From positions 20,107-84,106 of the forward strand of contig CAKOWY010000007.1 in NCBI GenBank assembly GCA_934129895.1: a DNA stretch of 64,000 nucleotides. Direction: 5' to 3'. The stretch comes from an uncultured Clostridia bacterium. Its GTDB lineage: Bacteria > Bacillota > Clostridia > TANB77 > CAG-508. Both the position numbers and the translations under genes were made by a program. Within the stretch, counting starts at the first letter, position 1, and every line of letters begins with the position of its first letter. The notes below the pieces were generated by a model. That model saw only the letters and a program-made list of their open reading frames with translations. It ran no database searches and was not told the origin of the DNA. Of the stretch, positions 2,099 through 59,759 are shown one piece after another.

Positions 2099-3292
2099 TT
2101 ATATAAGTTTTGCTGTTTCTTTTGCTATCATAAGCTCTTCGTTTGTTGGAACTAAATAAACTTTTACTTTTGAATCTGGAGCAGATATTTCTTTTTCTTC
2201 TCCTCTTACATTATTTGCTTCAGCATCTATTTTTACTCCCATAAATTCAAGTTTTTCGCAAATTCCTCTTCTTATATTTATTTGGTTTTCTCCAACACCA
2301 CCTGTAAATACTATATAATCTACTCCATTCATTGCTACTGCATATTTTGCAATATATGATGCAATTTCATATTTGAATTTTTCAATTGCAATTGCTGCTC
2401 TTTCATTATCTCCATAAGAAGCTGCTTCAATCTCTCTAAAGTCTGGTGCTAATCCTGATATTCCTTGAACTCCTGATTTTTTATTTAACATGTTTTCTGC
2501 TTCTTCTGCTGTCCATCCTTCTTTTTTCATTAAAAATGTTACAACAGATGGATCTAAATCTCCTGAACGTGTTACCATTGGAATTCCAGCAAGTGGTGTT
2601 AATCCCATACTTGTATCAACTGATTTTCCACCTTCTACTGCACATATACTTGATCCTTGACCTAAATGACATGTAACAATTTTTAAATCTTTTATATCTT
2701 TTCCAACAATTTCTGCTAATCTTTGTGAAACATATTGATGTGATGTTCCATGGAATCCATACTTTCTTATTCCATATTTTTTATAATATTCATAAGGTAT
2801 TGGATATATATATCTTTCTTTTGGCATTGTTTGATGGAATGCTGTATCAAATACACCTACCATAGGTTTTCCTGGCATTACCTTTTTACAAGCTTCAATT
2901 CCTATTATTCCTGCTGGATTGTGTAATGGTGCTAAATCTATACATTCTTTTAATACATCTATAACTTCGTCTGTTATAACTACAGATTTATTGATTTTTT
3001 CTCCACCATGTACTAATCTATGTCCTATTGCTGATATTTCATCTAAGCTATCTATTACTTTATATTCTGGATTTATTAATTGTTTTAATGTAAAATCAAC
3101 AGCCTCTTCATGTGTTTTTGCAGGATGTTTGATTTCTATTTTTTGTCCATTTACTTTATGTGTTATAAAAGCTTCATCTTCTCCTATTCTTTCATATTTT
3201 CCTGAAGCTAAAACTTCTTCTGTTTCCATGTTTATTAATTGATATTTTAGTGATGAACTACCACAATTTAATACTAATATTTTCATTTTCAT
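2099..3292 (-). CDS. ackA: acetate kinase (paralog 2)
   Basis: MKILVLNCGSSSLKYQ N-terminus, the HLGQGSS motif, and full-length acetate/propionate kinase family similarity. Confidence 0.9.
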   Translation of the reverse strand: MKMKILVLNCGSSSLKYQLINMETEEVLASGKYERIGEDEAFITHKVNGQKIEIKHPAKTHEEAVDFTLKQLINPEYKVIDSLDEISAIGHRLVHGGEKINKSVVITDEVIDVLKECIDLAPLHNPAGIIGIEACKKVMPGKPMVGVFDTAFHQTMPKERYIYPIPYEYYKKYGIRKYGFHGTSHQYVSQRLAEIVGKDIKDLKIVTCHLGQGSSICAVEGGKSVDTSMGLTPLAGIPMVTRSGDLDPSVVTFLMKKEGWTAEEAENMLNKKSGVQGISGLAPDFREIEAASYGDNERAAIAIEKFKYEIASYIAKYAVAMNGVDYIVFTGGVGENQINIRRGICEKLEFMGVKIDAEANNVRGEEKEISAPDSKVKVYLVPTNEELMIAKETAKLI

Positions 3293-3348
3293 CTTTTCCT
3301 TTTTATATTATATATTTAGGTTTTTAAGGTTTTGCCTATAAACCTTAT

Positions 3349-4539
3349 TTATTTTACTAATTCTGCTGTTTCACGAGCAATCATTAATTCCTCATTTGTT
3401 GGAATAACAAAAACTTTTACTTTTGAATTTGGTGAAGAAATTTCTGCTTCTTCTCCTTTTACTAAATTAGCTTTTCCTGATATTTCTACCCCAAATACTC
3501 CTAGTTGCTTACATATTTCACTTCTAGAATATGGTGATTTTTCTCCAACACCTGCTGTGAATGTTAAAACATCTATTCCTCCCATTGCAACTGCACATTT
3601 TGCTATATATCCTGCAATTGAATAATGGTATGCATCTAATGCAAGTTTTGCATGCTTTCCACCAGCCAGTGCTTCTGCTTCTATATCTCTAAAATCTACA
3701 GATACCATTGATATTCCATATACTCCAGATTCTCTATTTAATACTTCTTCAACATCATCTGCATCTAATTCTTCTTTTTTCATTAAATATGTTACAACAG
3801 ATGGATCTAAATCTCCTGAACGTGTTCCCATTGGAATTCCTCCAAGTGGTGTTAATCCCATACTTGTTTCAACTGATTCTCCATTTTTTATTGCACATAT
3901 ACTTGCTCCTTGACCTAAGTGACAATTTACTATTTTTAATTCTTTTATGTCTTTTCCTAGTATTTCTGCAACTCTATTTGCAACATATTGGTGTGATGTT
4001 CCGTGAAATCCATATTTTCTTACATGATATTTTTCATAATATTCATACGGAATTGGATATATATACTTTTCTTTCGAAATTGTTTGATGAAATGCTGTAT
4101 CAAATACTGCTACCATTGGCTTATTAGGTACAACTTTTTGACAAGCTTCTATTCCTAATATTGCTGCTGGATTATGTAATGGTGCCAACATTGCATTTTC
4201 TTTTATTTCTTGAATTACTTCATCTGTAATAAGAACTGCATCTTTAAATTGTTCTCCACCATGTACAACTCTATGACCTATTGCATCTAATTCATCCAAA
4301 CTTTTAAATACACCATAGTGTTCACTTGTTAATCTTTTCATTACAAATTGAATTGCTTTTTCATGATTTTTAGCTGGGTGTTCAAATTGGTGTTTTTCTC
4401 CATTTACTTTATGTGTTAAAAACGCTCCTACTTGCCCAATTCTTTCGTAATAACCTTTTACAAGCATTTCACCAGTTTCTGTATCAATTACTTGATATTT
4501 TAATGATGAACTTCCTGAATTTAAAACTAGAATTTTCAT
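3349..4539 (-). CDS. ackA: acetate kinase (paralog 1)
   Basis: MKILVLNSGSSSLKYQ N-terminus, the HLGQGAS motif, and roughly 65% identity to the neighbouring paralog. Confidence 0.9.
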   Translation of the reverse strand: MKILVLNSGSSSLKYQVIDTETGEMLVKGYYERIGQVGAFLTHKVNGEKHQFEHPAKNHEKAIQFVMKRLTSEHYGVFKSLDELDAIGHRVVHGGEQFKDAVLITDEVIQEIKENAMLAPLHNPAAILGIEACQKVVPNKPMVAVFDTAFHQTISKEKYIYPIPYEYYEKYHVRKYGFHGTSHQYVANRVAEILGKDIKELKIVNCHLGQGASICAIKNGESVETSMGLTPLGGIPMGTRSGDLDPSVVTYLMKKEELDADDVEEVLNRESGVYGISMVSVDFRDIEAEALAGGKHAKLALDAYHYSIAGYIAKCAVAMGGIDVLTFTAGVGEKSPYSRSEICKQLGVFGVEISGKANLVKGEEAEISSPNSKVKVFVIPTNEELMIARETAELVK

Positions 4540-4586
4540 AAATTATATACCTTTCTTTTTGTATGTACTCATTATTATATATTTTA

Positions 4587-5588
4587 TTAACCTTGTGATT
4601 GTGCTTGTACAGCTGTTATTGCTACTACACCTGCTACATCTTCACTACTACATCCTCTTGATAAATCATTTACAGGTCTTGCAATACCTTGACAAAGAGG
4701 TCCATAAGCTTCTGCTTTTGCTAATCTTTGTGTTAATTTATATCCAATATTTCCAGCTCCTAAATCTGGGAATACTAATACATTTGCTTGACCTTTTAAA
4801 GGACTTCCTTTTGCCTTAAATTCTGCAACTTCTGGTATTATTGCAGCATCTAATTGTAGTTCTCCATCAATTAATAGTTCTGGTGCTTTTTCTTTTGCAA
4901 GTCTTGTTGCTTCAACTACTTTTTCTGTTGATGCAGAATGTGCACTTCCATAAGTTGAATATGATAGCATTGCAACTTTAGGTTCTTCTCCTACTAATTG
5001 CTTAAAACTTTTACTTGATGATATTGCTATTTCTGAAAGTTTGTCTGCATCTGGTTCTTCATTTAAACCACTATCTGCAAATATAAAAGTTCCATTAGCT
5101 CCATATTCGCAATTTGGTACTACCATTACGAAAAATGCTGATACTAATTTTGTTCCTGGTGCTGTTTTTAATATTTGTAATGCTGGTCTTAATGTGTCAG
5201 CTGTTGAATGTGCTGCTCCTGATACAAGTCCATCAGCATCATTCTGTTTTACCATCATCATTCCATAATATATTGGTTCTAATATTAATTTTTGTGCTTG
5301 TTCTTCTGTCATACCTTTGGCTTTTCTTAATTCATATAATTCTTTTGCATATTCAGATGTCTCCTCTGATTTTACTGGATCTATTATTTGTGTTTCTCCT
5401 AATTCTAAACCATTTTCTTTAATTAATTTTTCAATTTCTTCTGTATTACCAATTAATACAACTTTAGCATATTTTTCTTTATTTACTATTTGTGCTGCTT
5501 TCAATATACGAATATCTGTTGCTTCTGGTAATACTATTGTTTTTATTTCTTGTTTTGCTCTGTTTTTTATTTCTTCTATAAATGACAT
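4587..5588 (-). CDS. pta: phosphate acetyltransferase
   Basis: 333-aa PTA_PTB-family protein with N-terminal MSFIEEIKNRAK and a C-terminal SRGCS motif. Confidence 0.9.
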   Translation of the reverse strand: MSFIEEIKNRAKQEIKTIVLPEATDIRILKAAQIVNKEKYAKVVLIGNTEEIEKLIKENGLELGETQIIDPVKSEETSEYAKELYELRKAKGMTEEQAQKLILEPIYYGMMMVKQNDADGLVSGAAHSTADTLRPALQILKTAPGTKLVSAFFVMVVPNCEYGANGTFIFADSGLNEEPDADKLSEIAISSSKSFKQLVGEEPKVAMLSYSTYGSAHSASTEKVVEATRLAKEKAPELLIDGELQLDAAIIPEVAEFKAKGSPLKGQANVLVFPDLGAGNIGYKLTQRLAKAEAYGPLCQGIARPVNDLSRGCSSEDVAGVVAITAVQAQSQG

Positions 5589-5694: not shown

Positions 5695-5744
5695 TTAGAC
5701 TTATTTTATTTTTGCTGATATGCTCTTTTAGTATTACCTGGTGC

Positions 5745-6640
5745 TGAACTACCTTTTTTTACCATAACAATCTCTATTGCTTCAAGTCTATAACAATATC
5801 CCGCAGTTCCTGCTGATTCTCCATTTTTAGCCCATCCCATCCAGCCTATATCTTGTGCATGAACTCTATAATAAATGTCATATTTATTTGCCATCTCACC
5901 TGTTAATCTTATCTGAATTGCTTCTAATCTTAATGCTCTTCCTGTTGTTCCTGAAATCTCTCCATTTCTTTTATAAGATTTTTCCCAGCCTATATCTTGA
6001 ATATGTGTTCTATACTCTATTCCACCACTATATTCAGGATTAAGTAATTTCAGCCTAATTCCTTCAAGTCTCAATGCTCTTCCTGTTGTTCCTGCTGTTG
6101 CTCCATCTTTTTTGCTTGCTTCCCATCCAACATCTTGAATGTGTGTATTATATTCTACTAATGTCTGTTTATAAGAATTTTTAGTACTTCCTGGTGCTGC
6201 TGCTCCTTTTTGCACAATTCTTATTTCAATTGCTTCTAGCCTATATCCATATCCTGCTGTTCCTGCTGATTCTCCATTTTTAGCCCATCCCATCCAGCCT
6301 ACATCTTGTGCATGAACTCTATAATAAACATCATATTTGTTTGCTAATTCTCCTGTTAATCTTATTTTTATAGCTTCTAATCTCAAAGCTTTGCCTGTTG
6401 TTCCTGATAATTCACCATTTTTCTTATAAGATTTTTCCCAGCCTATATCTTGAATATGTGTTTTATATTCTATATTTCCATCGTACATTTTATTTTCTAA
6501 ATTAATCTTTATTCCTTCGAGCCTTAATGCTCTTCCTGTTGTTCCTGCTGTTTTTCCATCATATACTTGTTTTTCCCAACCCACATCTTGAACATGTGTT
6601 GTATATTTAACATTTATTCCATACATTTTTACATATACCT
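5745..6640 (-). repeat. tandem duplication of a roughly 445-bp three-ChW-repeat module (about 90% nucleotide identity)
   Basis: Long near-identical stretches, for example TCTCCATTTTTAGCCCATCCCATCCAGCCTA...CTTGTGCATGAACTCTATAATAAA, recur about 450 bp apart. Confidence 0.7.
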
Positions 6641-6879
6641 TACATGTTGCTGTTTTATTTCCAACTTTAGCTGTTATTATAGCTTCACCTGATTTTTTTG
6701 CATAAACAACTCCATTTGAATTAACTGATGCCACTGAGCTATTACTACTTGACCATGTTACATTCTTGTTGTCTGTTGTATTACTTGGATTATAAGTAAC
6801 TTTAAGAGTATAGCTTTTTCTTTCGTATAATGTCAAACTACTTTTATCCAAGCTAATACTAATAAGTGGATATGTTGGT

Positions 6880-6960
6880 TTAGTTTCTGGTTTAGTTTCT
6901 GGTTTAGTTTCTGGCTTTGGATCTGGCTTTGGATCTGGTGTTGGATCTGGATCTGGTTCA
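6880..6960 (-). repeat. in-frame tandem 12-nt repeats encoding a PDPKPETKP-type proline-rich linker
   Basis: GGTTTAGTTTCT x3 followed by GGCTTTGGATCT x2, read directly on the plus strand. Confidence 0.8.
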
Positions 6961-9325
6961 GTAATAGATTCACTTTGTTTATATTTTTTTCTTTTAACTG
7001 CAATTTTTTCATCTGCATTTTTTTGTATAATTATATATATGTAATCATCATTCATAACAGTTCTTATATTTTTTACAGCATTATCAACATCAATACCTTC
7101 TTGCTCGAAACCATTGCTTTCTTTATTGAATTTATATAATCTTACTTTTCCACTATCATCTGCAGCTTTCAAAAGTACGTACATATCTTTATTAGTAGTT
7201 ATCAGTTCTGGAAAACTAAGTGTTATATTTGACTTTATATCACTCCACTTATTTCCATCATATATGTATGTTAAAACATTTTGAGTACTTGTCTTTCCAA
7301 GTACAAAATATATTTTACTGTTAAATACTTTCATACTATAATTTCCTGATGACATAGAATTACTTACTTCTGAAAAACTATTTTTTGAATTATATTTATA
7401 TAATTTAATTTTATCACCATAAGTCCATCTAACTGAAACATATATGTTATTATTTAGTACAACAACCTGTGGTTGTCCACATAATTGTTTTGAAGAATAT
7501 TCTCCAAATTCAGAAATCGTTTTTCCACTCAATTTTATTAATCTTGCTGATAAACTATCTTCTCCTATACATGTTATATAAATTTCGTTTTGATTACTTG
7601 TAATACCAAAATCACCATTTATATTATTTACTGTAGTTATTTTTTCCCAACTCTTTTTCTGGGTATTTAATTTATATATATTTAATTTTCCCCATGTAGA
7701 AACAAACAAATATAAATCATTATCTGTATTTATCAATTCTATTTGAGATATAAGATCCATATCACTTATATCTAAACTTCCATAATCTTCTTTCCAACTT
7801 TGTCCATTATAAAATTTCGTATATATTTTTTTATCTGCACAATTTACTGTATATATAGAATTTTGAAGATTTGCAATTGCAAAACATTTATTAACATTTT
7901 TTGCCGTTGCATCATTGTAATTAGTATTTTCCCATAATTCTAAATTTGATATATCCGGAAATGTAATTGTACATGTCATTTGTTTTCCAGAACTTTCTGA
8001 CACATTACTTATAACTATTCCCGAATTTGTTCCATCAGAAAATGTTAATGCTCCATCTTCTAGTGTTTTAGTAAAATCAGCAGATCCAATTGAAATTCTT
8101 CCACTTTCTTTTGATAAGAATGCATTATATACTAAATTTTCTTCAGTATTTTCACTACTTGTATTTGAAATTTTATTAGGTCTAAATACATATACTCCTG
8201 TATCTCCGAATCTATTGCTTAATCCTTCAACATTATTATTTATACGATATACTATTATTCCAGATCCTCCAATTCCAGCATCTAGAGAATTATTATCAGT
8301 ATAATCTCTTTCTGGTTTTTTTCTATATTCAATAACAAATACTTCATCTTCATTTAATGGAGATTTTATTATATATGCTTGATTTCCATCTTTATTGTCC
8401 TGTGTATCTAGTACAACAGTTTGACTAGTAGTAATTGTCTTTATATTTAACCAATTAGAAAAATACATTCTTAAATAGGCTAATGGGTATGGCATATACA
8501 TATTTCCAGATGCCATTATGTCCCATATATACACAGGAAGGTCTGGTTCAGTATTTCTATATAAATCTGGATATCCTAGTGTATGTAAAAATTCATGAGC
8601 AATTACTCCAGATTCACTTAATGAAATTCCGTAGTTCTGTTCCTGTTCCTAAAACTGTAGCAGTATTTAAAATATTATATGCTCCAATTTTTTTACCAGA
8701 CCAATATTCTTCTGTTGAATAATCTGATTTATGAGAGACAAATGTTGTATTTGATGAAGCACCCTTTTCTCCGCCATATAACATTATAGTTAAATTATCT
8801 ATGTATCCATCTCCATCATAATCAATTATTTTATCTTTTACTCCTGGAATATTTTTTATCATTTCTTGAATAATTTGAGAATCAATATTCATTTGATAAG
8901 CTAAATTTTTATCTATTTTTAATTCATAAGATGTTATTTTTTTACCATCATCTTGTGGAAAAATATTTTTCAAATGAAATTTTCCATAAGATATTGTATT
9001 TAAATAATTAGTTACAGATCTTCCCTGTGAACCATCATATAATCCTATGATCTTATCTCTATTCTTTTCAAAATATTCAGCCTCTTCTTGTGCTTTATCT
9101 CCCGCAAAATGAGCAAATAATACTACATTTGCAAAGTTTTCTTCATCTATATCAGAAGCCTTTGCAAAAGCTGTATTACATTTTGGTACAAATATCATCA
9201 AAACCAACATTGACAATATTACTAGTATTTTTTTTGTTTTCATCATAAGTTTCCCCTTTATTTTCAAAATTTTATTTCATTTATATTTTCACTATATCAT
9301 AACTATAAATAGTTTGCAATATTTT

Positions 9326-9706
9326 TTAAAAATAATTAAATCTATTTGGATTTCCAATATTGTTCATATTATTCATACTGCCATAAAAGCCTGTTGTAGA
9401 TATAGTAATAAACTTTATTGAATAAATATCACAATATACCAAACTATCATTTTCAAAAGATCTTAATAATATGTAACTTGCTCCAACATCTTCCAAAATT
9501 CCTATTCTATCAGTCATATTATTTGTTCCAATTAAAAATTCTACTCTCATTAATCTTCCTATTTGTTCTCTTAAAAATGCTGGAGTATAAATTGGATTTG
9601 TTAAAATCTCTGGAGAATTTTGATCAATGTTGACATTTCTATTCTCCTTTTTTTCATTATTTACATTTTCATCACCATTTGCCATTTTATCACACATTCC
9701 TTTCAT
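9326..9706 (-). CDS. gerQ: spore coat protein GerQ/YwdL-like
   Basis: 126-aa Asn-rich protein with a C-terminal FLREQIGRLMRVEF...IYSIKFITI pattern resembling GerQ. It sits immediately downstream of a cwlJ-like gene, as in the Bacillus cwlJ-gerQ operon. Confidence 0.5.
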   Translation of the reverse strand: MKGMCDKMANGDENVNNEKKENRNVNIDQNSPEILTNPIYTPAFLREQIGRLMRVEFLIGTNNMTDRIGILEDVGASYILLRSFENDSLVYCDIYSIKFITISTTGFYGSMNNMNNIGNPNRFNYF

Positions 9707-9759
9707 ATAATTATTTATAACAATTATATGAAGCTTTAAAAGAAATGTTACACTTTATT

Positions 9760-10233
9760 TTAAGTTTGTGAATATTTTTCTGTAGGTCTATAAAAACAAT
9801 GATTTCCAAGTTTGGTATGAATAATTCCAGATCCATTACTAGGAAATACTGGACTACATTCTGGTTTGAATGGATTTAAATACCATAAACATTCTCCAAT
9901 TTCATTTAATTTATTTCCAGCTAATGCCCAATCAGCTATATTATAATGAATTTCGGTTGGATTCATATTATAAATATTTTGAGGATTATACACACTTCTT
10001 ATAGTTTCTCTTGCACAATCAAACTGACCTTCTTGAAATATTATATTTCTTATGTTTCCACCTTGTGAAACCCTAGAATATTCTCCAACTTCAGAATTCA
10101 CCCTATTCATAGTAACTGTTGCCACTGCTTTCATTCCATTATCTCCTTCTCCTCCGGCTTCACATTGTACTATTCTAGCTAATAATTCTCTATCTGAAAA
10201 AGCCATAAAAAAACACCCCTTTATATTATACAA
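9760..10233 (-). CDS. cwlJ: spore cortex cell-wall hydrolase, CwlJ/SleB catalytic domain only
   Basis: LLARIVQCEAGGEG...KAVATVTMNRV is the Hydrolase_2 signature. The protein is small, with no peptidoglycan-binding domain. Confidence 0.75.
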   Translation of the reverse strand: MYNIKGCFFMAFSDRELLARIVQCEAGGEGDNGMKAVATVTMNRVNSEVGEYSRVSQGGNIRNIIFQEGQFDCARETIRSVYNPQNIYNMNPTEIHYNIADWALAGNKLNEIGECLWYLNPFKPECSPVFPSNGSGIIHTKLGNHCFYRPTEKYSQT

Positions 10234-21050: not shown

Positions 21051-21368
21051 ATGGAAAAAGACTTCGAAGTTTCTTGCTCTTATGCTTTTTTAGAGCGTGA
21101 ACCGAAAATCACAAAGGAGTCCAACCCGCATCTCGCTGCCAAGTTTTACAAGGATTTGGCAAACGATCTTTGCTATTCTCTCTACACTCAGAAGAACTAC
21201 TCGCAGATGTGCCAACTGCTCAGCTTTGTTGCACTGTGCAACGGTAGAGTAAAACTCTGTGAAAAGAGTGGTTGTATCATCAGCATGGTCTTTTCCTTTA
21301 CGGACCAAGGGAACTCTCAGGAGTTTTTGGAATACGTAAAACAGCTCAATGTGAGCATTGTTAATTAA
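21051..21368 (+). CDS. small orphan protein B (105 aa, 8 Cys), GC-rich
   Basis: AGGAGG 6 nt before the ATG, and the ORF is followed directly by a hairpin terminator. Confidence 0.55.
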   Translation: MEKDFEVSCSYAFLEREPKITKESNPHLAAKFYKDLANDLCYSLYTQKNYSQMCQLLSFVALCNGRVKLCEKSGCIISMVFSFTDQGNSQEFLEYVKQLNVSIVN

Positions 21369-21378
21369 AAATTGGCAA

Positions 21379-21416
21379 AGAGAAGGCCCTTTCCTAACGG
21401 AGAGGGTCTTCTCTTA
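21379..21416. terminator. rho-independent terminator (probably bidirectional) between the orphan module and the nrdD 3-prime end
   Basis: AGAGAAGGCCC ... GGGTCTTCTCT stem, then TTATTTA. Confidence 0.6.
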
Positions 21417-21422
21417 TTTATT

Positions 21423-38651: not shown

Positions 38652-38841
38652 TTCATCACCTTTATATATATTGTACTACATTTTTTGTGACAAATAAATG
38701 ACAATTTATTAATTTTTTCTTATATTTTTTAATTTTATTATAAAATAAAGAACTGATAATGTTTTTGGCATCATCAGTCCTCTTGTACGCTCAACCTAAT
38801 TTGGTCAAGCGGGTGTGTGTATCTTTGACCAAGCTAACAGT

Positions 38842-39657
38842 TTAGCCAAACTTATAGTAGAAAATGTGTTGCCCGATTTTGACCTTGCATTTGATGTTAT
38901 CTCTTGCAACTTTTTCGGACTGACTCGAAATTGCGTCTGGATTATAGAAACCAAGAGCCCCTGTTCCAGCATATTCATCCGCATTCAATCCCAATCGTGC
39001 CGCTTCTTGCCTCAGAAGTTCTTCGGTTGGATCATCTCCTGCCAATGCCTGCATAGCTGCTTGAACACAGCTTTCCGGAACATTTGTTACAACCTTTCCC
39101 CCAGCATAAATCTTGCCATTCTTCACTGGTGAAAATTGTTGTTTTTGGAAAATTACCCCTCTAACAGTATTTGGATAAATCGAAGAATTTATCCGATTCA
39201 AGACTGTAGCTGCAACTGCAACTTGTCCCTCGAATGGTTGATTTCCAGCTTCAGCAAAAACAATTTGCGCAAGCAAAATTTCATCTTCTGACAATGAATT
39301 TTCTTCTTCAATGTCATCTTCTGAAATCTCCTCATTTGGATTTTTCCCAACCAAAATTGTCAACATAATATTCTTGTGAGAATATAACTCATCCAATTTT
39401 GAAAATGAGTTCTTGGTTTCAACAACGTTCTTAGCGGATGAACCCTCGGTTACATTCTCCAAAATGTCACCTCCTGTAAATACAAGACAACCGCTAATAT
39501 CTGCTTCCGATGAACTTTCTTCCTGCGAATGATTCACAGGTTCAAATCCACCATTCGCAAAAATTGCAATTGTAATGGCAATACCAATTGCAATTCCTAC
39601 AGCAGAGTTCCAGTCAAATTTTTTCTTCATCCGTCTTTTCATTTTTTTATAACACAC
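38842..39657 (-). CDS. SleB/CwlJ-family cell-wall hydrolase paralog encoded in a GC-rich segment
   Basis: N-terminal transmembrane helix, an acidic linker, and the Hydrolase_2 motif LLAQIVFAEAGNQPFEGQVAVAATVLNRINS. The track start is a GTG, so the true start may be the ATG at 39642. Confidence 0.7.
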   Translation of the reverse strand: MCYKKMKRRMKKKFDWNSAVGIAIGIAITIAIFANGGFEPVNHSQEESSSEADISGCLVFTGGDILENVTEGSSAKNVVETKNSFSKLDELYSHKNIMLTILVGKNPNEEISEDDIEEENSLSEDEILLAQIVFAEAGNQPFEGQVAVAATVLNRINSSIYPNTVRGVIFQKQQFSPVKNGKIYAGGKVVTNVPESCVQAAMQALAGDDPTEELLRQEAARLGLNADEYAGTGALGFYNPDAISSQSEKVARDNIKCKVKIGQHIFYYKFG

Positions 39658-39760
39658 TCCTTTATTTTACGGATACTTTTATTTTACCATATTTTTACTT
39701 TTATTTCAAGTTTTTTTCTATTACAAAAAGAGATTCCTTTAATTGGAATCCCTTTTATAT

Positions 39761-51681: not shown

Positions 51682-52032
51682 ATGGAACATTGGAGTGTTG
51701 AAGATTATAAAAATTTCACTAATAATAAAATAAAAAAAAGCAAATATAGAGCTAATAAAACATCAATAGATGGTCATACATTTGATAGTCAAAAAGAAGC
51801 CGAATATTACTGTGAACTAAAATTAAAATTACAAGCTAAAGAAATTAATGGTTTTTGTTTACAACCTACATTTATGCTGGCTCCTGGTTTAAAATATAAA
51901 GCTGATTTTATCGTTTTTAATACTGATAATTCTTATGAAGTAATAGATGTAAAAGGAATAAAGACTAAAGAATATATAACTAAAAAGAAAGTTTTTGAAG
52001 ATAAATATAATATGAAAATAAAAGAAATATGA
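51682..52032 (+). CDS. DUF1064-family protein (phage-associated, Hjc/restriction-endonuclease-like fold)
   Basis: Pattern SKYRANKTSIDGHTFDSQKEAEYYCELKL...YKADFIVF...EVIDVKG, typical of DUF1064. Lone plus-strand gene. The ATG at 51682 has no SD of its own. Confidence 0.55.
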   Translation: MEHWSVEDYKNFTNNKIKKSKYRANKTSIDGHTFDSQKEAEYYCELKLKLQAKEINGFCLQPTFMLAPGLKYKADFIVFNTDNSYEVIDVKGIKTKEYITKKKVFEDKYNMKIKEI

Positions 52033-52965: not shown

Positions 52966-55900
52966 TTATATTTCTATTTCTTTGTCTAAATATGTTGAAT
53001 ATATATATGTCTTAAAGATTTTTTGACCTGTACTTTTTTCTAATGCTCTCTTATATAAATCCAATTGTATTCTATATTTTTCTACAATATTTGATTCTTC
53101 TTTATTTGGAACATAATCTGTTTTAAAGTCAACAAGAATTAAATTTCCACCTTTGTCAATATAATATAAATCAATTACACCTTGAACTAATATTTTTTCT
53201 TCAAATCCACCTTGATATATTTCACAAGCTGGTATGTTTATATAAAATGGCTTTTCTCTTTCTACTTTTTCAGCTTGACACATTTCTTCCCATATCTTGC
53301 TTTGAGTAAATTTATATATTTTATTAAAATTTATTTCATCAGCCTCTTGTTGAGTGATAGTCTTTTTAGCAATCATTTTTTCAATCATTTCTTTTATTTC
53401 TTCAATTGTATATTTTCTATTATTTAAATCAAGATTTTGCATACATAAATGTATTAAAGAACCTTTTTCTGCATTTGTTATTTTAACCTCTTTATCTTTT
53501 TGAAGAAATTTGGGTTTTGGAAATTCTATATTTTGATTATTTAATTCATTTTCAGATTTTATATTATTTGAATCATTAATAATTTCCTTTATTTCTGTAA
53601 CTGACATTTTTGTTGGAAGTATCATTGAATTATAATATTTATATTTATAATCTAATTTTTCTTTTATATTTTTTTCAAGTTCAATATTTTCATCATGATT
53701 ATTTAACATGCATAAAATATCACTAGATTTCTTTTCATCCTCATCATTACCTGTTGTACTACATATTTTTGCTACATCTTCTTTTGTATAATAATTCCAT
53801 ATTGACAATTCTGACATTTTTTCTTTTTTATAATAATTAACTAAAGTTATCCATTCTAAATATGATTTTGCATTTTGTAACAACATATTATTTAATTCTT
53901 CATATTTTTCAATATTTTCAAAAATTTTATCTTGTTTTTCTTTCTTTACATAACCTGTAATTATTAATTTTTCTTTTGCTCTTGTTAGAGCTACATATAA
54001 GACTCTCATTTCTTCAGATAATGTTTCTATTTTCATTTTGTTTCTTATTGCTTTTTTTGATAATGTATCATATTGTATTTGTAAATCATAATCTATATAT
54101 TTTACACCTATTCCTAATTCGGGATGTAACAATATTTTTGAATTTAAATCTTGCATATTAAAGTTTTTACCTGAATTTGCCAAAATAACAATTGGAAACT
54201 CTAACCCTTTGCTCTTATGAATACTCATTATTCGTACAACATCATCATTTTCTCCTATTATCTTTGCAGAATCCATATCTTTACTACTCATTTTTAATTT
54301 TTCTATATAATTAATAAAATTATATAATCCCTTAAAACTAACACTTTCAAATTGTTTGGCTCTTTCAAATAACATTTTTAAATTTGCTTGCCTTAATTCT
54401 CCATTTTTCATCATTCCAACATAATTATAATATCCTGTGTCATTATAAATCTTCCATATAAATTCATCTAAGCTTAAATATTCTTGTTCTTCTCTCCATT
54501 GTTCTAGTTTATTTAAAAAGCTTTCTATTTTCTTGTTTAAATTTTCATTTACACTTGTTTTGGCTTTTATTAATGTATTATAAAAATTATCATATTTATC
54601 ATTTAACCTTATTTCAACTAAATCATTATCTGTAAATCCACCAATTATAGACCTCATTGTTGCCACTAATGGAATTTCTTGTAATGGATTATTTATTATT
54701 TTTAATAAGTTCATAATTGTCTGAATCTCAAGACTTTCAAGATATTCTGAAGAAGAATCACTAAATATTGGTATTCCTAATTTAATTACTTCTTTTTCAA
54801 AAATTGGTGCTGCAATTTTTGTAGATCTTAATAAGATAACTATGTCTTTAGGTCTTATATCTCTTTGGATTTCATTTTTGGTATCATATACTTGAAATTT
54901 TTTGTCTAACAATTCTTTTATTTTATTAGCAACAAACTGTGCCTCAACTTCTATATCTTCTTTTCTTTCAGTTTCTTCACTTTCTGCATCTTCGTCGCCA
55001 TCATCTTTATTTTTTAATTCATTTTCAAGTTCTTCTATATCTTCTTCATCACTTTCTTTTTTTTCTATAGTTATTATATCAATTTCTGTTTTATAATTTT
55101 CTCCAGCTGACTTATAGTTTGCACCTACATTTAAATATTCTTCTTCTGTATAATTTAATTCTCCTAATTCCTCACTCATTATACTCGAAAATATTAAATT
55201 AGAAAAATCTAATACTTCACTTCTACTTCTAAAATTTTTAAATAATTGAATTTTTAAATTATCATCTTTATTCTTTTCTTCTTTTAATTTGTAATTTTTA
55301 TATTTATCTAAAAATAAATCTGGTCGTGCTTGTCTGAATTTATATATACTTTGTTTTACATCTCCAACCATAAATATGTTGTTTCCTTTAGATATAGAAG
55401 TTAATATATATTCCTGTACAAGATTACTATCTTGATATTCATCTATTGCAATTTCTTGATATTTTTCTTGATATTTTTTTGCAATTTCTGTTGGCTTCCC
55501 ATTTTCATCAAGTAAAATTTTTAAAGCAAAATGTTCAATATCACTGAAGTCTACTATATTTTTTTCTCTCTTTTTTTGAGAAAATCTTTTGCTGAATTCA
55601 AATATTATAATTTTGAGTTTATTTAAAATATAATACATATTTTTTATATCTAAATATGCCTCTTGTGAATTCAATATTAAAACTTTGTCTGCTATTCTTT
55701 TCAACCCGTCTAAAATTTTTGAACGTGTTTTTTGTGCTTGTGTTTTTGTATCTGTTTTTATTTTTGAATCCATTGACCATTTGCCAAAATCTAACGATCT
55801 ATAAATTTCATAAGCTTTATCCCATGTGTCTAAATTTGATTGCAATAATTCTAATTGATTAAGATTTGCTCTTAAAAAATCATAACTCTTTTTTAATTCA

Positions 55901-56631
55901 GGACTTTCCATTAAATTTATTACTTCTCTCTTTAATTGTTCAACACCATCATCAACTATTTCTTTTATTTGTGCTATTAAAATTTTTCCCCATGTTGTTT
56001 CTGAAAAATCCTTTAAATTATCTGTTTCAATATTGAACATTTCTATTTTTTCTTCAAGCCATTTTTCAGGATAAGGATTGCTTTGTATATATTTATAAAT
56101 TGTTAGTATTAATTCTTTTAATGGTGTATCATCTCTATATCCTGTATATGTATTTATCAATTTTATAAAATCTTCATCCTTATTTTCATATTTTTCTTCG
56201 AATAATTCTTCTAACACATCTTGTTCTAATATTTCTATTTCTGTTGTATCTGCAATTCTAAAGTTTTGTGATATATCTATCTCAAAAAAATTATTTCTTA
56301 CTACATCTAAACAAAATGAATCTATTGTACATATACTTGCCTTATTTAATAATGTTACCTGTCTTTGTAAATTTAATTCATTGGGATTTTCATCAATTTT
56401 TTTATAAATTGCTTTTAATACTCTTTCTCTCATTTCAGATGCTGCAGCATTAGTAAATGTTACAATTAATAATCTATCTATATCTATTTTTTCATTTATA
56501 ATCTTATTTATAATTCTTTCTACTAGTACTGCTGTTTTACCACTTCCAGCAGCTGCTGCTACAAGTATATTATTACCTTTTTCATATATCGCTTGTTCCT
56601 GTTCTTTAGTCCATTTTACTTCCTTTGACAT
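52966..56631 (-). CDS. addA: ATP-dependent helicase/nuclease subunit A
   Basis: UvrD-like helicase motifs (AAAGSGKT Walker A) followed by a C-terminal PD-(D/E)xK nuclease domain. 1221 aa. Confidence 0.9.
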   Translation of the reverse strand: MSKEVKWTKEQEQAIYEKGNNILVAAAAGSGKTAVLVERIINKIINEKIDIDRLLIVTFTNAAASEMRERVLKAIYKKIDENPNELNLQRQVTLLNKASICTIDSFCLDVVRNNFFEIDISQNFRIADTTEIEILEQDVLEELFEEKYENKDEDFIKLINTYTGYRDDTPLKELILTIYKYIQSNPYPEKWLEEKIEMFNIETDNLKDFSETTWGKILIAQIKEIVDDGVEQLKREVINLMESPELKKSYDFLRANLNQLELLQSNLDTWDKAYEIYRSLDFGKWSMDSKIKTDTKTQAQKTRSKILDGLKRIADKVLILNSQEAYLDIKNMYYILNKLKIIIFEFSKRFSQKKREKNIVDFSDIEHFALKILLDENGKPTEIAKKYQEKYQEIAIDEYQDSNLVQEYILTSISKGNNIFMVGDVKQSIYKFRQARPDLFLDKYKNYKLKEEKNKDDNLKIQLFKNFRSRSEVLDFSNLIFSSIMSEELGELNYTEEEYLNVGANYKSAGENYKTEIDIITIEKKESDEEDIEELENELKNKDDGDEDAESEETERKEDIEVEAQFVANKIKELLDKKFQVYDTKNEIQRDIRPKDIVILLRSTKIAAPIFEKEVIKLGIPIFSDSSSEYLESLEIQTIMNLLKIINNPLQEIPLVATMRSIIGGFTDNDLVEIRLNDKYDNFYNTLIKAKTSVNENLNKKIESFLNKLEQWREEQEYLSLDEFIWKIYNDTGYYNYVGMMKNGELRQANLKMLFERAKQFESVSFKGLYNFINYIEKLKMSSKDMDSAKIIGENDDVVRIMSIHKSKGLEFPIVILANSGKNFNMQDLNSKILLHPELGIGVKYIDYDLQIQYDTLSKKAIRNKMKIETLSEEMRVLYVALTRAKEKLIITGYVKKEKQDKIFENIEKYEELNNMLLQNAKSYLEWITLVNYYKKEKMSELSIWNYYTKEDVAKICSTTGNDEDEKKSSDILCMLNNHDENIELEKNIKEKLDYKYKYYNSMILPTKMSVTEIKEIINDSNNIKSENELNNQNIEFPKPKFLQKDKEVKITNAEKGSLIHLCMQNLDLNNRKYTIEEIKEMIEKMIAKKTITQQEADEINFNKIYKFTQSKIWEEMCQAEKVEREKPFYINIPACEIYQGGFEEKILVQGVIDLYYIDKGGNLILVDFKTDYVPNKEESNIVEKYRIQLDLYKRALEKSTGQKIFKTYIYSTYLDKEIEI

Positions 56632-56703
56632 TTATTTTTCCTTTCTTTATTCTAATACTATTATTCTATTACATCTTTGCTTTTTTTTCAATAATATATA
56701 AAA

Positions 56704-56738
56704 ATAAACAGGCAGGAGCTATAGCTCCTGCCTGTTTA
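56704..56738. terminator. perfect hairpin terminator between addA start region and the GC-rich orphan gene
   Basis: AAACAGGCAGGAGC TATA GCTCCTGCCTGTTT followed by ATTT. Lies 8 nt past the orphan gene stop. Confidence 0.7.
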
Positions 56739-56745
56739 TTTGCAG

Positions 56746-57078
56746 TTACAGCAGTGCACTAATTGCAACTTTCTGTCCCTGATTAGCAATCAGTCTATCT
56801 TCATAGCCATTTTTAGCCATGTTCCAAACCGATACCTTGACATCCTGAGTCGCCTCTGCAATTTTCAGCAGTTTTTTGTCCGTACTATTTTCACACGCCG
56901 AGTAGCCCATGTTCCTCATGTTCTCATCCCAGTACTCAGCATACCAACCTTGCATACTCTTATTTTCTTCGGTCGGTCTGGTCACAAATGCAATTTGTAA
57001 CTTCCTTCTCATCCAAAGAAGTTCTTCAACCTCTTTCCTTTCGAATCTCATAGTCGTGCACTCATTACTGTCTTTCAT
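56746..57078 (-). CDS. orphan 110-aa protein encoded in a GC-rich segment
   Basis: AGGAGGG lies 7 nt before the ATG. The open frame is Trp/Glu-rich (WYAEYWDENMRNMGY). It is followed by a perfect terminator, and local GC is about 45%. Confidence 0.5.
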   Translation of the reverse strand: MKDSNECTTMRFERKEVEELLWMRRKLQIAFVTRPTEENKSMQGWYAEYWDENMRNMGYSACENSTDKKLLKIAEATQDVKVSVWNMAKNGYEDRLIANQGQKVAISALL

Positions 57079-57154
57079 TTTTTTACCCTCCTGAATTACA
57101 TTAAGGTTCTTCTGTTTTCTACGCTTTCTTGTTGATTACTCAAACTAACAATAT

Positions 57155-57182
57155 ATTATACCACTTTTTTCCATTTTGTCAA
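57155..57182 (-). promoter_or_regulatory. near-consensus sigma-A promoter for the orphan gene
   Basis: On the minus strand, TTGACA, a 16-nt spacer, then TGGTATAAT (an extended -10), about 95 nt upstream of the ATG. Confidence 0.5.
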
Positions 57183-57216
57183 TAGTTTTTTGTTCATTTA
57201 ACCTTTTAGACAAAAA

Positions 57217-57894
57217 TTACTTACAAAATCTATGTTTTCCTATAGTAACAGTCATCGGTCTTGACCAAATCCATTTATTAGTTGCTGTACTAGGATTAAA
57301 ATAATATATTGCCCCATAAGATGGATCCCATCCATTTAATGCATCTTGTGCTGCTTTTTTTGCTGTACTATCAGGAGTCATATTAATTTGTCCATCAGAA
57401 ACTGCGTCAAATGCTCCACTTTGATATATTACTCCAGATATTGTATTTGGAAATGAACTACTTTTAACTCTATTTAACACAACTGCTGCAACAGCAACTT
57501 GCCCTGTATATGTTTCTCCTCTTGCTTCTCCATAAACAAGTCTTGCAAGTAAATTCAAATTAGAAGAATTGTTAGATGTTGAACTACTTGAAGAAGAACT
57601 TGTTTGTATTCCCATTGCATTAAGTGTTTTTGTTCCTGCTATTCCATCAACAGTTAATCCGTTTTTCTTTTGGAATTTTTTCACTGCTGCAACAGTTTGA
57701 CTGCCATATATTCCATCTATAGATCCATTATAATATCCCCATCTCTTTAATTTTTGTTGTATAGTAGTTACTTCACTTCCTCTTGAACCATATTTAGATA
57801 ATGCTTCTACACTGTCATTCATCGAAAATATAATCATTGCTGTACTAGTACAAACAGCAATAAAAAGTATAACAAATATAATTTTCTTTTTCAT
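57217..57894 (-). CDS. sleB: spore cortex-lytic enzyme SleB
   Basis: Signal/transmembrane N-terminus, a PG_binding_1 domain (GSRGSEVTTIQQKLKRWGYYNGSIDGIYG), a Ser-rich linker, and the Hydrolase_2 motif LLARLVYGEARGE...AVAAVVLNRV. Confidence 0.85.
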   Translation of the reverse strand: MKKKIIFVILFIAVCTSTAMIIFSMNDSVEALSKYGSRGSEVTTIQQKLKRWGYYNGSIDGIYGSQTVAAVKKFQKKNGLTVDGIAGTKTLNAMGIQTSSSSSSSTSNNSSNLNLLARLVYGEARGETYTGQVAVAAVVLNRVKSSSFPNTISGVIYQSGAFDAVSDGQINMTPDSTAKKAAQDALNGWDPSYGAIYYFNPSTATNKWIWSRPMTVTIGKHRFCK

Positions 57895-58517: not shown

Positions 58518-59759
58518 ATGGATAACGTTTTAGGAATTATATGTGAATATAATCCATTTCATAATGGTCATTTATATCATTTAAATGAATCAAAAAAAAT
58601 TGCTAATTGTAAATATTCAATTGCAGTTATTTCTGGAAATTTTACTCAAAGAGGAGAACCTTCATTAATAGATAAATGGTCAAAAGCAGAAATGGCTATA
58701 AGAAACGGTGTAGACCTAGTTATAGAACTTCCTACAATTTATTCAATATCTAGTGCTGAAAATTTTGCAAATGGTGCAGTAAAAATTTTAAATTCTTTAA
58801 AAATTGTAGATTGTTTATCTTTTGGAAGTGAGTGTGGCGATATATCTATTTTAAATGATATCGTACAAGTTCTTATAGAAGAACCTAAAGCTTATCAAAC
58901 TCTATTAGCCCATGAACTAGCTAAAGGAATTTCATTTCCAAATGCTAGAGAAAATGCATTATTAATGTACTTAGGAAATGTTAGAAGATTTGCTAATATT
59001 CTTTCTTCTCCTAATAATATTTTAGGTATAGAATATTTAAAATCTTTAAAATTAAATCAATCAAAGATAAATCCTATTACATTAAAAAGACAGGAATCAG
59101 AACATAACACAAGCTTTTTTACTTCATCATCAAGATATGCAAGTGGTTCTGCTATACGAAATACTTGTTTTACAAATGATATTACAAATATCCAACGTGT
59201 TGTTCCTGAAATTTCTTATGATATTATCGAAAATAAACTAGAAAATGGAACATTGATAAAAAATATATCTGTTTTTGATAAAGAAATTTTATTCACTTTG
59301 AGAAAAATGTCAGTTGAAGAAATTGCTGAGCTTCCAGATGTTTCTGAAGGATTGGAATTTTCAATTAAAAAAATAGCAAACTCATGTAATACAGTTCAAG
59401 AATTTTTAAACTCAATTAATTCAAAAAGATATACTCAATCTAGAATCCAAAGAATTTTATTATATGCAATGTTAGGCATTACAAAAAAGGATATGCTATT
59501 ATCAAAAAATACTATTCCTTATGTAAGAGTTCTTGGTTTTAATAAAAATGGTGAAAAACTAATTGGAGAAATTGTAAAACAAAATCCAAAACTTCCTGTA
59601 ATTACATCTGTAAAAAAATTTATGGATACAAATACTAATAAAAATTTAAAACATTTCATGGAAAAAGACATTGAAGCTACTAATATTTATACATTAGGTT
59701 ATCAAAAAAATTCTGAAGCAAATCTTGACTATACTCATAAATTAATAATTGATAATTAA
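58518..59759 (+). CDS. tmcAL: tRNA(Met) cytidine acetate ligase (UPF0348/YlbM nucleotidyltransferase family)
   Basis: N-terminal GIICEYNPFHNGHLYHL HxGH-like motif. 413 aa. Confidence 0.7.
   Translation: MDNVLGIICEYNPFHNGHLYHLNESKKIANCKYSIAVISGNFTQRGEPSLIDKWSKAEMAIRNGVDLVIELPTIYSISSAENFANGAVKILNSLKIVDCLSFGSECGDISILNDIVQVLIEEPKAYQTLLAHELAKGISFPNARENALLMYLGNVRRFANILSSPNNILGIEYLKSLKLNQSKINPITLKRQESEHNTSFFTSSSRYASGSAIRNTCFTNDITNIQRVVPEISYDIIENKLENGTLIKNISVFDKEILFTLRKMSVEEIAELPDVSEGLEFSIKKIANSCNTVQEFLNSINSKRYTQSRIQRILLYAMLGITKKDMLLSKNTIPYVRVLGFNKNGEKLIGEIVKQNPKLPVITSVKKFMDTNTNKNLKHFMEKDIEATNIYTLGYQKNSEANLDYTHKLIIDN

Follow-up and report, generated by a model that had tools for sequence, protein, structure and literature searches.

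Organization of the sleB-addA locus

The DNA analyzed here is a stretch of 64,000 nt (hereafter the window) from contig CAKOWY010000007.1 of an uncultured Clostridia bacterium (assembly GCA_934129895.1). On its minus strand, in between sleB and addA, lies a 110-codon open reading frame (ORF) at 57078..56746 whose composition departs sharply from that of the host genome and whose product has relatives in a single species. We consider it likely to be a real, foreign-derived and translated orphan gene. The locus, in the direction of transcription, is arranged as follows.

57894..57217, minus strand: sleB; passes the TIGR02869 equivalog model (307.9 bits, cutoff 236.5)
57155..57182, minus strand: putative sigma-A-type promoter; -35 TTGACA at 57182..57177, 16-nt spacer, extended -10 TGgTATAAT at 57163..57155
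57079..57149, minus strand: predicted 5' untranslated leader of about 70 nt (70-76), with a predicted transcription start at about 57146-57149
57086..57092, minus strand: Shine-Dalgarno sequence AGGAGGG, 7 nt upstream of the ATG
56746..57078, minus strand: orphan coding sequence, open frame, stop codon included
56695..56741, minus strand: putative intrinsic terminator; perfect 40-nt palindrome at 56741..56702 (18-bp stem, 4-nt loop) followed by a T-run
56631..52966, minus strand: addA; passes the TIGR02785 equivalog model (1148.8 bits, cutoff 707.65)

The Trp/Glu-rich protein of 110 amino acids (MKDSNECTT...AISALL) that an initial annotation of this DNA had placed on the minus strand is present as described, with 4 Trp and 12 Glu; the G+C content of its ORF is 43%, against the roughly 45% claimed. 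The protein is predicted to be soluble, with neither signal peptide nor membrane segment, and is probably largely helical. Its expression signals appear strong and autonomous, also in agreement with that annotation. The putative promoter, with its 16-nt spacer, matches the consensus at 12 of 12 positions and carries the TG of an extended -10 element. It is the top promoter-like site of the scanned 2-kb region, is invariant across 15 haplotypes taken from independent assemblies (the set on which all within-species polymorphism reported here is based), and is unchanged in a divergent allele that is described below. The leader, at about 70-76 nt, is shorter than the 95 nt first estimated. A weak hairpin within it (ACCUU...AGGGU, about -6 kcal/mol) is predicted in both alleles to occlude part of the ribosome-binding site; the differences between alleles are confined to its apical part, and its z-scores (-1.8 and -2.6) are not statistically significant. 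The Shine-Dalgarno sequence is kept in the divergent allele, where the spacer to the start codon is 5 nt.

The hairpin downstream of the gene is indeed perfect, as had been noted, although not with the 14 bp and the 8-nt distance given then: the stem measures 18-20 bp and begins 4 nt past the stop codon, with its GC-rich core about 10 nt past it. The terminator is flanked by an A-run, so that it could potentially act in both directions. The stem is polymorphic within the species at two positions (56730 C/T and 56729 A/G), where G-U keeps the pairing intact, and apart from these changes no variation is seen in promoter, Shine-Dalgarno sequence or terminator. The palindrome occurs just once within the window, and none appeared in shuffles. 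The predicted transcript would be about 450 nt long, of which the ORF occupies 333 nt. The cassette represents a compact and portable expression unit, in which a consensus extended -10 is combined with a Shine-Dalgarno sequence and a terminator that are both perfect.

A compositional island at synonymous sites

In a genome of about 25% GC, the G+C content measured in 200-nt windows climbs to 0.41-0.435 over 56700-57099; values in the body of addA are about 0.18-0.30. At third codon positions the G+C content (GC3) of the orphan gene reaches 0.47, compared with 0.118 +/- 0.044 in 27 host genes, which places it about 8 standard deviations above the host mean. Host-rare codons account for 31% of the gene against a host mean of 5%, and the description of this gene as compositionally foreign is thus well founded. 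First and second positions (0.44 and 0.35) are host-like (0.42 and 0.32 in the host). The excess is therefore confined to synonymous sites and does not come from amino-acid content, which denotes a different synonymous-site regime. Expression-driven codon bias was considered as a source of the high GC3 and is ruled out by pta and both ackA copies of the window: the GC3 of these native central-fermentation genes, 0.06-0.09, shows that in this host a bias linked to expression does not drive GC3 upwards.

A gene fixed in a single species

A search of 5.8 billion protein clusters retrieved the cluster of the orphan itself and one other, P0002, which is the divergent allele; overall, no relative of the protein was found in about 15 billion proteins. 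Its own cluster holds 15 sequence variants, of which the one identical to the protein of the window is present on 118 contigs and another, nearly identical to it, on 94. Exhaustive HMMER searching of 1.84 billion representatives returned the same cluster plus three weak matches, which are RTX-like or Big_2 repeat proteins and were discarded as spurious. The protein is absent from 185,579 GTDB species representatives and has no match in IMG/VR; tblastn against phages and plasmids gave nothing at E <=1, blastn against plasmids gave nothing, and the JGI metagenomes contained only a same-species copy.

Every match lies in the sleB-orphan-addA context with near-identical flanks. Among contigs retrieved independently through SleB, 24 of 24 carry the gene in the same slot, and no empty sleB-addA site was found among them; the closest sampled relatives (AddA <=71% identical) lack the gene. 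It is therefore fixed in one uncultured human-gut Clostridia species. No homologue was found in other prokaryotic species, and the orphan status proposed for it holds: family and sequence searches yield nothing beyond same-species copies.

Searches for a family were equally negative. Pfam and NCBIfam gave no significant match, and a DUF2600 identity was rejected because its E-value of 0.066 falls below threshold. The best PHROGs match (E 0.018) is not significant, and the family matched differs between the two alleles; PADLOC-DB offered no family at E <=1 for either allele. Against PDB, the best match was at E = 0.36 by sequence profile and at E = 3.6 by Foldseek. AlphaFold2 models reached a mean confidence score (pLDDT) of 38.6 with 3 sequences and 49.9 with 17; they disagree on the C-terminal half and are unreliable.

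Translation and purifying selection

Polymorphism within the species speaks for a protein-coding gene. Segregating sites of the orphan ORF fall on first, second and third codon positions as 1, 1 and 8 (8 of 10 at third positions, binomial p about 0.003), and its polymorphic codons comprise 7 synonymous and 3 non-synonymous ones. The neighbors follow the same pattern, with counts of 2, 2 and 11 in rnhA, 23, 15 and 72 in addA and 0, 0 and 6 in sleB, and those of the nucleotidyltransferase gene at 58518..59759 are 10, 11 and 33. Nucleotide diversity (pi) is 0.0098 in the ORF and 0.0036-0.019 in the neighbors.

The comparison with the divergent allele (locus L001) extends this picture. The two alleles are 76% identical and differ by 57 substitutions, with no indels and no stops, whereas among random mutants carrying 57 substitutions the frame stays open in only about 10%. 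The substitutions distribute as 14, 16 and 27 over the three codon positions, and the ratio of non-synonymous to synonymous divergence (dN/dS) is 0.147/0.449, about 0.33, and 0.11 in the C-terminal third. A frame that is kept, an enrichment of third positions, a dN/dS below 1 and a ribosome-binding site together point firmly to a frame that is translated and under purifying selection.

These data also bear on the possibility that the frame is spurious, or is decaying without function in a remnant of foreign DNA. The protein has no homologues and no confident fold, and a second GC-rich module of the window, treated below, carries an in-frame TGA in most strains, which indicates that cassettes of this kind can be disrupted. 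However, the orphan ORF is intact at 110 amino acids on more than 200 contigs and remains whole in the deeply diverged allele; third positions dominate its polymorphism, its dN/dS stays at 0.33, and its promoter, Shine-Dalgarno sequence and terminator are held constant, with stem polymorphisms that keep pairing. We regard a decaying frame as extremely unlikely.

A rare and deeply diverged allele

The divergence of the second allele is sharply localized. A tract at 57149..56785, comprising the leader and codons 1-98, holds about 70 differences, and its flanks differ by <=2%. The sleB of that locus is identical at 589 of 596 positions, all 7 differences being at third positions (dS 0.055); the 114-nt spacer to addA differs at 1-2 positions, and the promoter hexamers are identical. 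The divergent tract thus coincides with the transcribed region, with promoter, terminator and flanking genes at within-species identity. Within the protein, the differences concentrate in a central segment:

56863..57006, minus strand: variable protein core, codons 25-72; contains 21 of the 26 codons that differ non-synonymously from the divergent allele

Even there dN/dS is below 1 (dN 0.28, dS 1.16, ratio 0.24). Synonymous divergence is 0 over codons 1-24 and 0.25 over codons 73-110, and 8 of the 13 within-species polymorphisms of the orphan module carry the state of the divergent allele. Taken together, this pattern is that of a recombination mosaic of two old allele classes, and the divergent allele is a rare one. 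Hypermutation of the variable core by a diversity-generating retroelement was considered and rejected, as there is no adenine-specific pattern and dN/dS is 0.24; no second copy of the variable region that could act as template repeat was found, and there is no reverse transcriptase among the neighboring genes.

Both alleles have GC3 of 0.44-0.47 across a dS of at least 0.45, and the third-position changes between them are nearly balanced (12 from GC to AT, 9 from AT to GC). Either the alleles diverged mostly outside the AT-rich host, or else their GC is held up by selection.

Protein or RNA

A GC island with a strong promoter and a terminator in an AT-rich genome has the classic look of a structured RNA. 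The locus has this look, and it may therefore be asked whether it acts mainly or additionally as a structured regulatory RNA, that is, with a dual function in which GC-rich synonymous sites are selected for the structure or stability of the RNA and are not a relic of a donor. Some observations favor this. The ORF region folds with a z-score of -6.1 in sense and -0.85 in antisense; sleB controls gave +0.6 and +0.9, and 49 host coding segments have a mean z of -0.88 (standard deviation 1.12). Three common alleles reach -5.0 to -5.3 and the divergent one about -2.8 to -3.4, GC3 is upheld in both allele classes, and the structure of the window sequence fits the divergent allele marginally better than it fits random same-position mutants (p = 0.048).

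The conservation of this structure is poor, however. RNAalifold counted 3 compensatory, 8 one-sided and 8 broken pairs, in a comparison of two effective sequences and thus of low power. In the divergent allele, the long-range helix that closes the ORF is broken. The 3' hairpin is disrupted at its apex, here through synonymous differences that are also frequent within the population. In minimum free energy the divergent allele ranks at the 51st percentile of random mutants changed at the same positions, and its substitutions are therefore not compensatory. No Rfam family reaches threshold at the locus: Rfam 15 at gathering thresholds gave 0 matches in the entire 64-kb window, and a permissive scan of 56600-57300 gave terminator-driven matches plus a sub-threshold CsrC (30.3 bits, gathering threshold 61). 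Reading the latter as a CsrA sponge was rejected, given that the match is sub-threshold and the 11 GGA motifs are about what composition predicts. ARAGORN found neither tRNA nor tmRNA. Above all, the polymorphism is that of a translated frame, and for this locus we take it as the decisive argument in the choice between RNA and protein. A main or additional RNA role thus seems unlikely to us. In a broader sense, GC islands in very AT-rich genomes are not always RNAs, and population polymorphism can decide the matter.

Dual-function coding small RNAs (sRNAs) are exemplified by RNAIII/hld of S. aureus, SR1/SR1P of B. subtilis and VR-RNA of C. perfringens. Like them, the orphan would be transcribed by itself, into an RNA of about 450 nt, and has a strong promoter and a strong terminator; it shares with them the small ORF and is predicted to be much more structured than ordinary mRNAs. 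Unlike them, its ORF nearly fills the transcript and neither covariation nor an Rfam match nor an identified target supports an RNA function, so that the resemblance is one of layout. A more radical proposal is that the orphan and the other GC-rich cassettes form an undescribed class of GC-island genes of extremely AT-rich gut Clostridia, with synonymous GC owed to selection for a folded transcript and not to recent import, and with the variable core of the protein swapped by cassette-like recombination between conserved promoter and terminator handles; the transcript would then be either a regulatory RNA with a dual function or an mRNA so stable that it escapes AU-directed decay. We consider this quite improbable.

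Origin and possible function

Atypical composition is a classical criterion for horizontally acquired genes. The orphan agrees with such genes in its sharp discontinuity, confined to one transcription unit, in its foreign codons and in having a promoter and a terminator of its own. It differs from them in that no donor, integrase, tRNA target, direct repeats or mobile-element neighbors were found, in being a single gene and not an island, and in a GC3 that has not drifted towards that of the host in either allele at dS >=0.45.

The alternative is a native gene that arose de novo, by overprinting or through runaway divergence within the lineage. No donor or homologue turned up in the databases searched, the gene is fixed and lies in conserved synteny within the species, and in a large survey most species-specific orphan genes (SSOGs) of the gut were native rather than viral (Vakirlis & Kupczok, Genome Res 2024; PMC11293555). 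According to the same survey, gut SSOGs are mostly rare within their species and closely match conserved genes in GC, the viral-derived and de novo subsets having lower GC. Native and de novo orphans thus lie at or below host GC (PMC11293555), while the orphan described here has a GC3 four times that of its host. AT-biased mutation in a genome of 25% GC should not yield a 43% GC segment. Additionally, none of the five other frames of the segment has a Pfam match, which led us to reject overprinting or a remnant of a conserved gene; there is no similarity to the other orphan ORFs, and local repeats are just short matches at chance level. A native origin thus appears very unlikely. Set beside the SSOGs of the survey (PMC11293555), the orphan is likewise short, restricted to one gut species, under apparent purifying selection, poor in host-optimal codons and poorly predicted in structure; unlike them it is fixed and has a synonymous-site GC four times that of the host, which makes it an atypical orphan.

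The reading that we prefer, a foreign-derived and translated orphan gene, may be formulated as follows. The locus would be an autonomous, monocistronic gene for a soluble protein of 110 residues, derived from an unsampled, GC-richer gene pool with which alleles may still be exchanged occasionally. The donor pool would most likely be other Firmicutes or their mobile elements, because the extended -10 promoter, the strong Shine-Dalgarno sequence and the intrinsic terminator are Firmicutes-style. Transcription by the vegetative sigma factor would be strong, constitutive and independent of sleB and addA, and would produce an unusually stable, highly folded mRNA in which the leader hairpin partly covers the ribosome-binding site in both alleles.

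Several points weigh against this interpretation. Transcription and translation are deduced from sequence. The failure to find a donor in very large databases would also fit an origin other than horizontal transfer, and since both alleles hold their GC3 at 0.44-0.47, selection rather than recent import could maintain the GC. The sense mRNA is far more structured than host coding segments, which leaves room for a role at the RNA level. AlphaFold yields no confident fold, and the absence of toxin, secretion-system or phage genes next to the orphan deprives the immunity and partner-specificity idea discussed below of support from the neighborhood.

The sequence shows no recognizable mobile mechanism of arrival. 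The initial annotation pictured small genes dropped into intergenic slots. Our inspection of the module edges showed no target-site duplications, terminal inverted repeats or direct repeats beyond short AT-rich ones at chance level. Phage, plasmid and viral relatives are missing as well, and with 24 of 24 sites occupied there is no empty site to compare, so that picture did not hold. In this sense the module does not look like cargo of a transposon, a miniature inverted-repeat transposable element (MITE) or an insertion element, its promoter and terminator sequences being unique in the window.

As for function, we offer a doubtful guess with low confidence: the orphan could be a small accessory protein of the cytoplasm that has a binding or protective role, of the immunity or anti-invader type; on this view, the conserved N- and C-terminal segments would form a scaffold and the variable center (amino acids 25-72) would set partner specificity. 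Firmicutes encode small orphan immunity and anti-invader proteins, for example the immunity proteins of polymorphic toxins. The orphan resembles these in its size of about 100 amino acids, its solubility, its probably helical nature, its restriction to one lineage, its variable center and its atypical composition. It departs from them in that no gene for a cognate toxin, a secretion system or a phage lies nearby, in that PADLOC, PHROGs and Pfam give no match, and in a dN/dS below 1 even in the core; the analogy is a working one and does not assign the orphan to these proteins.

If our interpretation is correct, this uncultured human-gut bacterium offers a well-delimited case of a fixed, selected, species-specific orphan with a composition that suggests an external origin. 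Such a case contrasts with the recent view of gut orphans as mostly native and of host GC, and would imply that the donor pool is still missing from public protein collections, very large as these are.

Other GC-rich units of the window

The initial annotation compared the orphan with a module at 20.7-21.4 kb, and the likeness in architecture is real. This second module (20.74-21.42 kb), which is fixed, combines TTGACA-17-TGaTATAAT with AGGAGG and a terminator in the same layout. Both of its ORFs (GC3 0.37 and 0.53) likewise encode orphans restricted to the species. Composition is atypical in a third unit as well, which encodes a hydrolase.

20829..21032, plus strand: orf67 of the second module (20744..21420), in the same frame as orf105 with a single TGA between them
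21051..21368, plus strand: orf105 of the second module, with a perfect AGGAGG and an ATG directly after the TGA
38842..39642, minus strand: membrane-anchored Hydrolase_2 (SleB/CwlJ-like) protein, GC3 0.31

The TGA form of the second module is the majority, on about 250 contigs. TGG variants at this codon (P0020 and others, on about 22 short contigs) encode a single protein of 179 amino acids. The TGA may be a nonsense polymorphism of high frequency, by which a foreign orphan gene is divided into two coupled ORFs, or else a site of stop-codon readthrough.

The Hydrolase_2 unit has its own putative promoter, TTGAAA-17-TGgTAAAAT near 39700, and a terminator near 38760-38830. Over roughly its first 333 nt, the mRNA folds at -95.6 kcal/mol with 36% GC, which is unusually stable for that GC, and this mRNA start is almost certainly the host background segment with a z of -6.14 that matches the orphan.

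The family of small genes that the annotation had suggested is supported only in part, in that the other GC-rich orphans are also restricted to the species. The three orphan proteins show no mutual similarity. Their third-base preferences are unlike (G3 0.34 and C3 0.13 in the orphan, C3 0.26-0.29 in the second module), their mRNA z-scores differ, no repeats or target-site duplications are shared among the GC-rich units, and their promoter and terminator sequences are not repeated in the window. Several independent foreign cassettes fit these data better than a family does.

addA and its upstream neighbors

The product of addA is, judging from its TIGR02785 score, a bona fide Gram-positive AddA, and an AddA without AddB would be unusual. 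The orphan had been said to occupy the place of addB. Comparison with 24 related gut Clostridia metagenome-assembled genomes (MAGs), in which AddA is 52-71% identical, leads elsewhere: addB or any large ORF upstream of addA is found in 0 of the 22 that have upstream sequence, and the upstream neighbors vary. A solo addA is therefore the clade-wide arrangement in these reduced, AT-rich genomes, close to what the annotation itself had named as counting against its proposal, and the orphan has not taken over a place that addB vacated, nor does it bear on AddAB biology. The orphan was also rejected as AddB or as a substitute for it, having 110 amino acids and no family match against about 1,100 amino acids with a nuclease and an iron-sulphur domain.

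One related locus (L011, AddA 65% identical, 30% GC) has a pair of small ORFs immediately upstream of addA and in opposite orientation to it:

8943..9296 of that locus, minus strand: ORF of 117 amino acids, GC 0.40, no Pfam match
9510..9821 of that locus, minus strand: ORF of 103 amino acids, GC 0.34, no Pfam match

The region upstream of addA may thus repeatedly host small atypical genes.

Additional observations on the window

The window as a whole holds no tRNA, no tmRNA and no Rfam family (riboswitch, T-box or leader) at threshold, which is sparse for a Firmicutes chromosome. The minus strand carries nearly all of its genes, and the GC skew stays negative throughout. A lone DUF1064 gene of 116 amino acids (51682..52032, plus strand), just before yicC, runs opposite to nearly all others; this family is commonly phage-associated, and the gene may be a prophage remnant. 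The region 2099..5588 (minus strand) contains pta and, after it, a tandem pair of acetate/propionate kinase (ackA) paralogues with lengths of 397 and 396 amino acids. Finally, a protein of 942 amino acids (5706..8534, minus strand), probably located at the cell surface, contains six ChW (clostridial hydrophobic W) repeats as well as a Big_2 domain.

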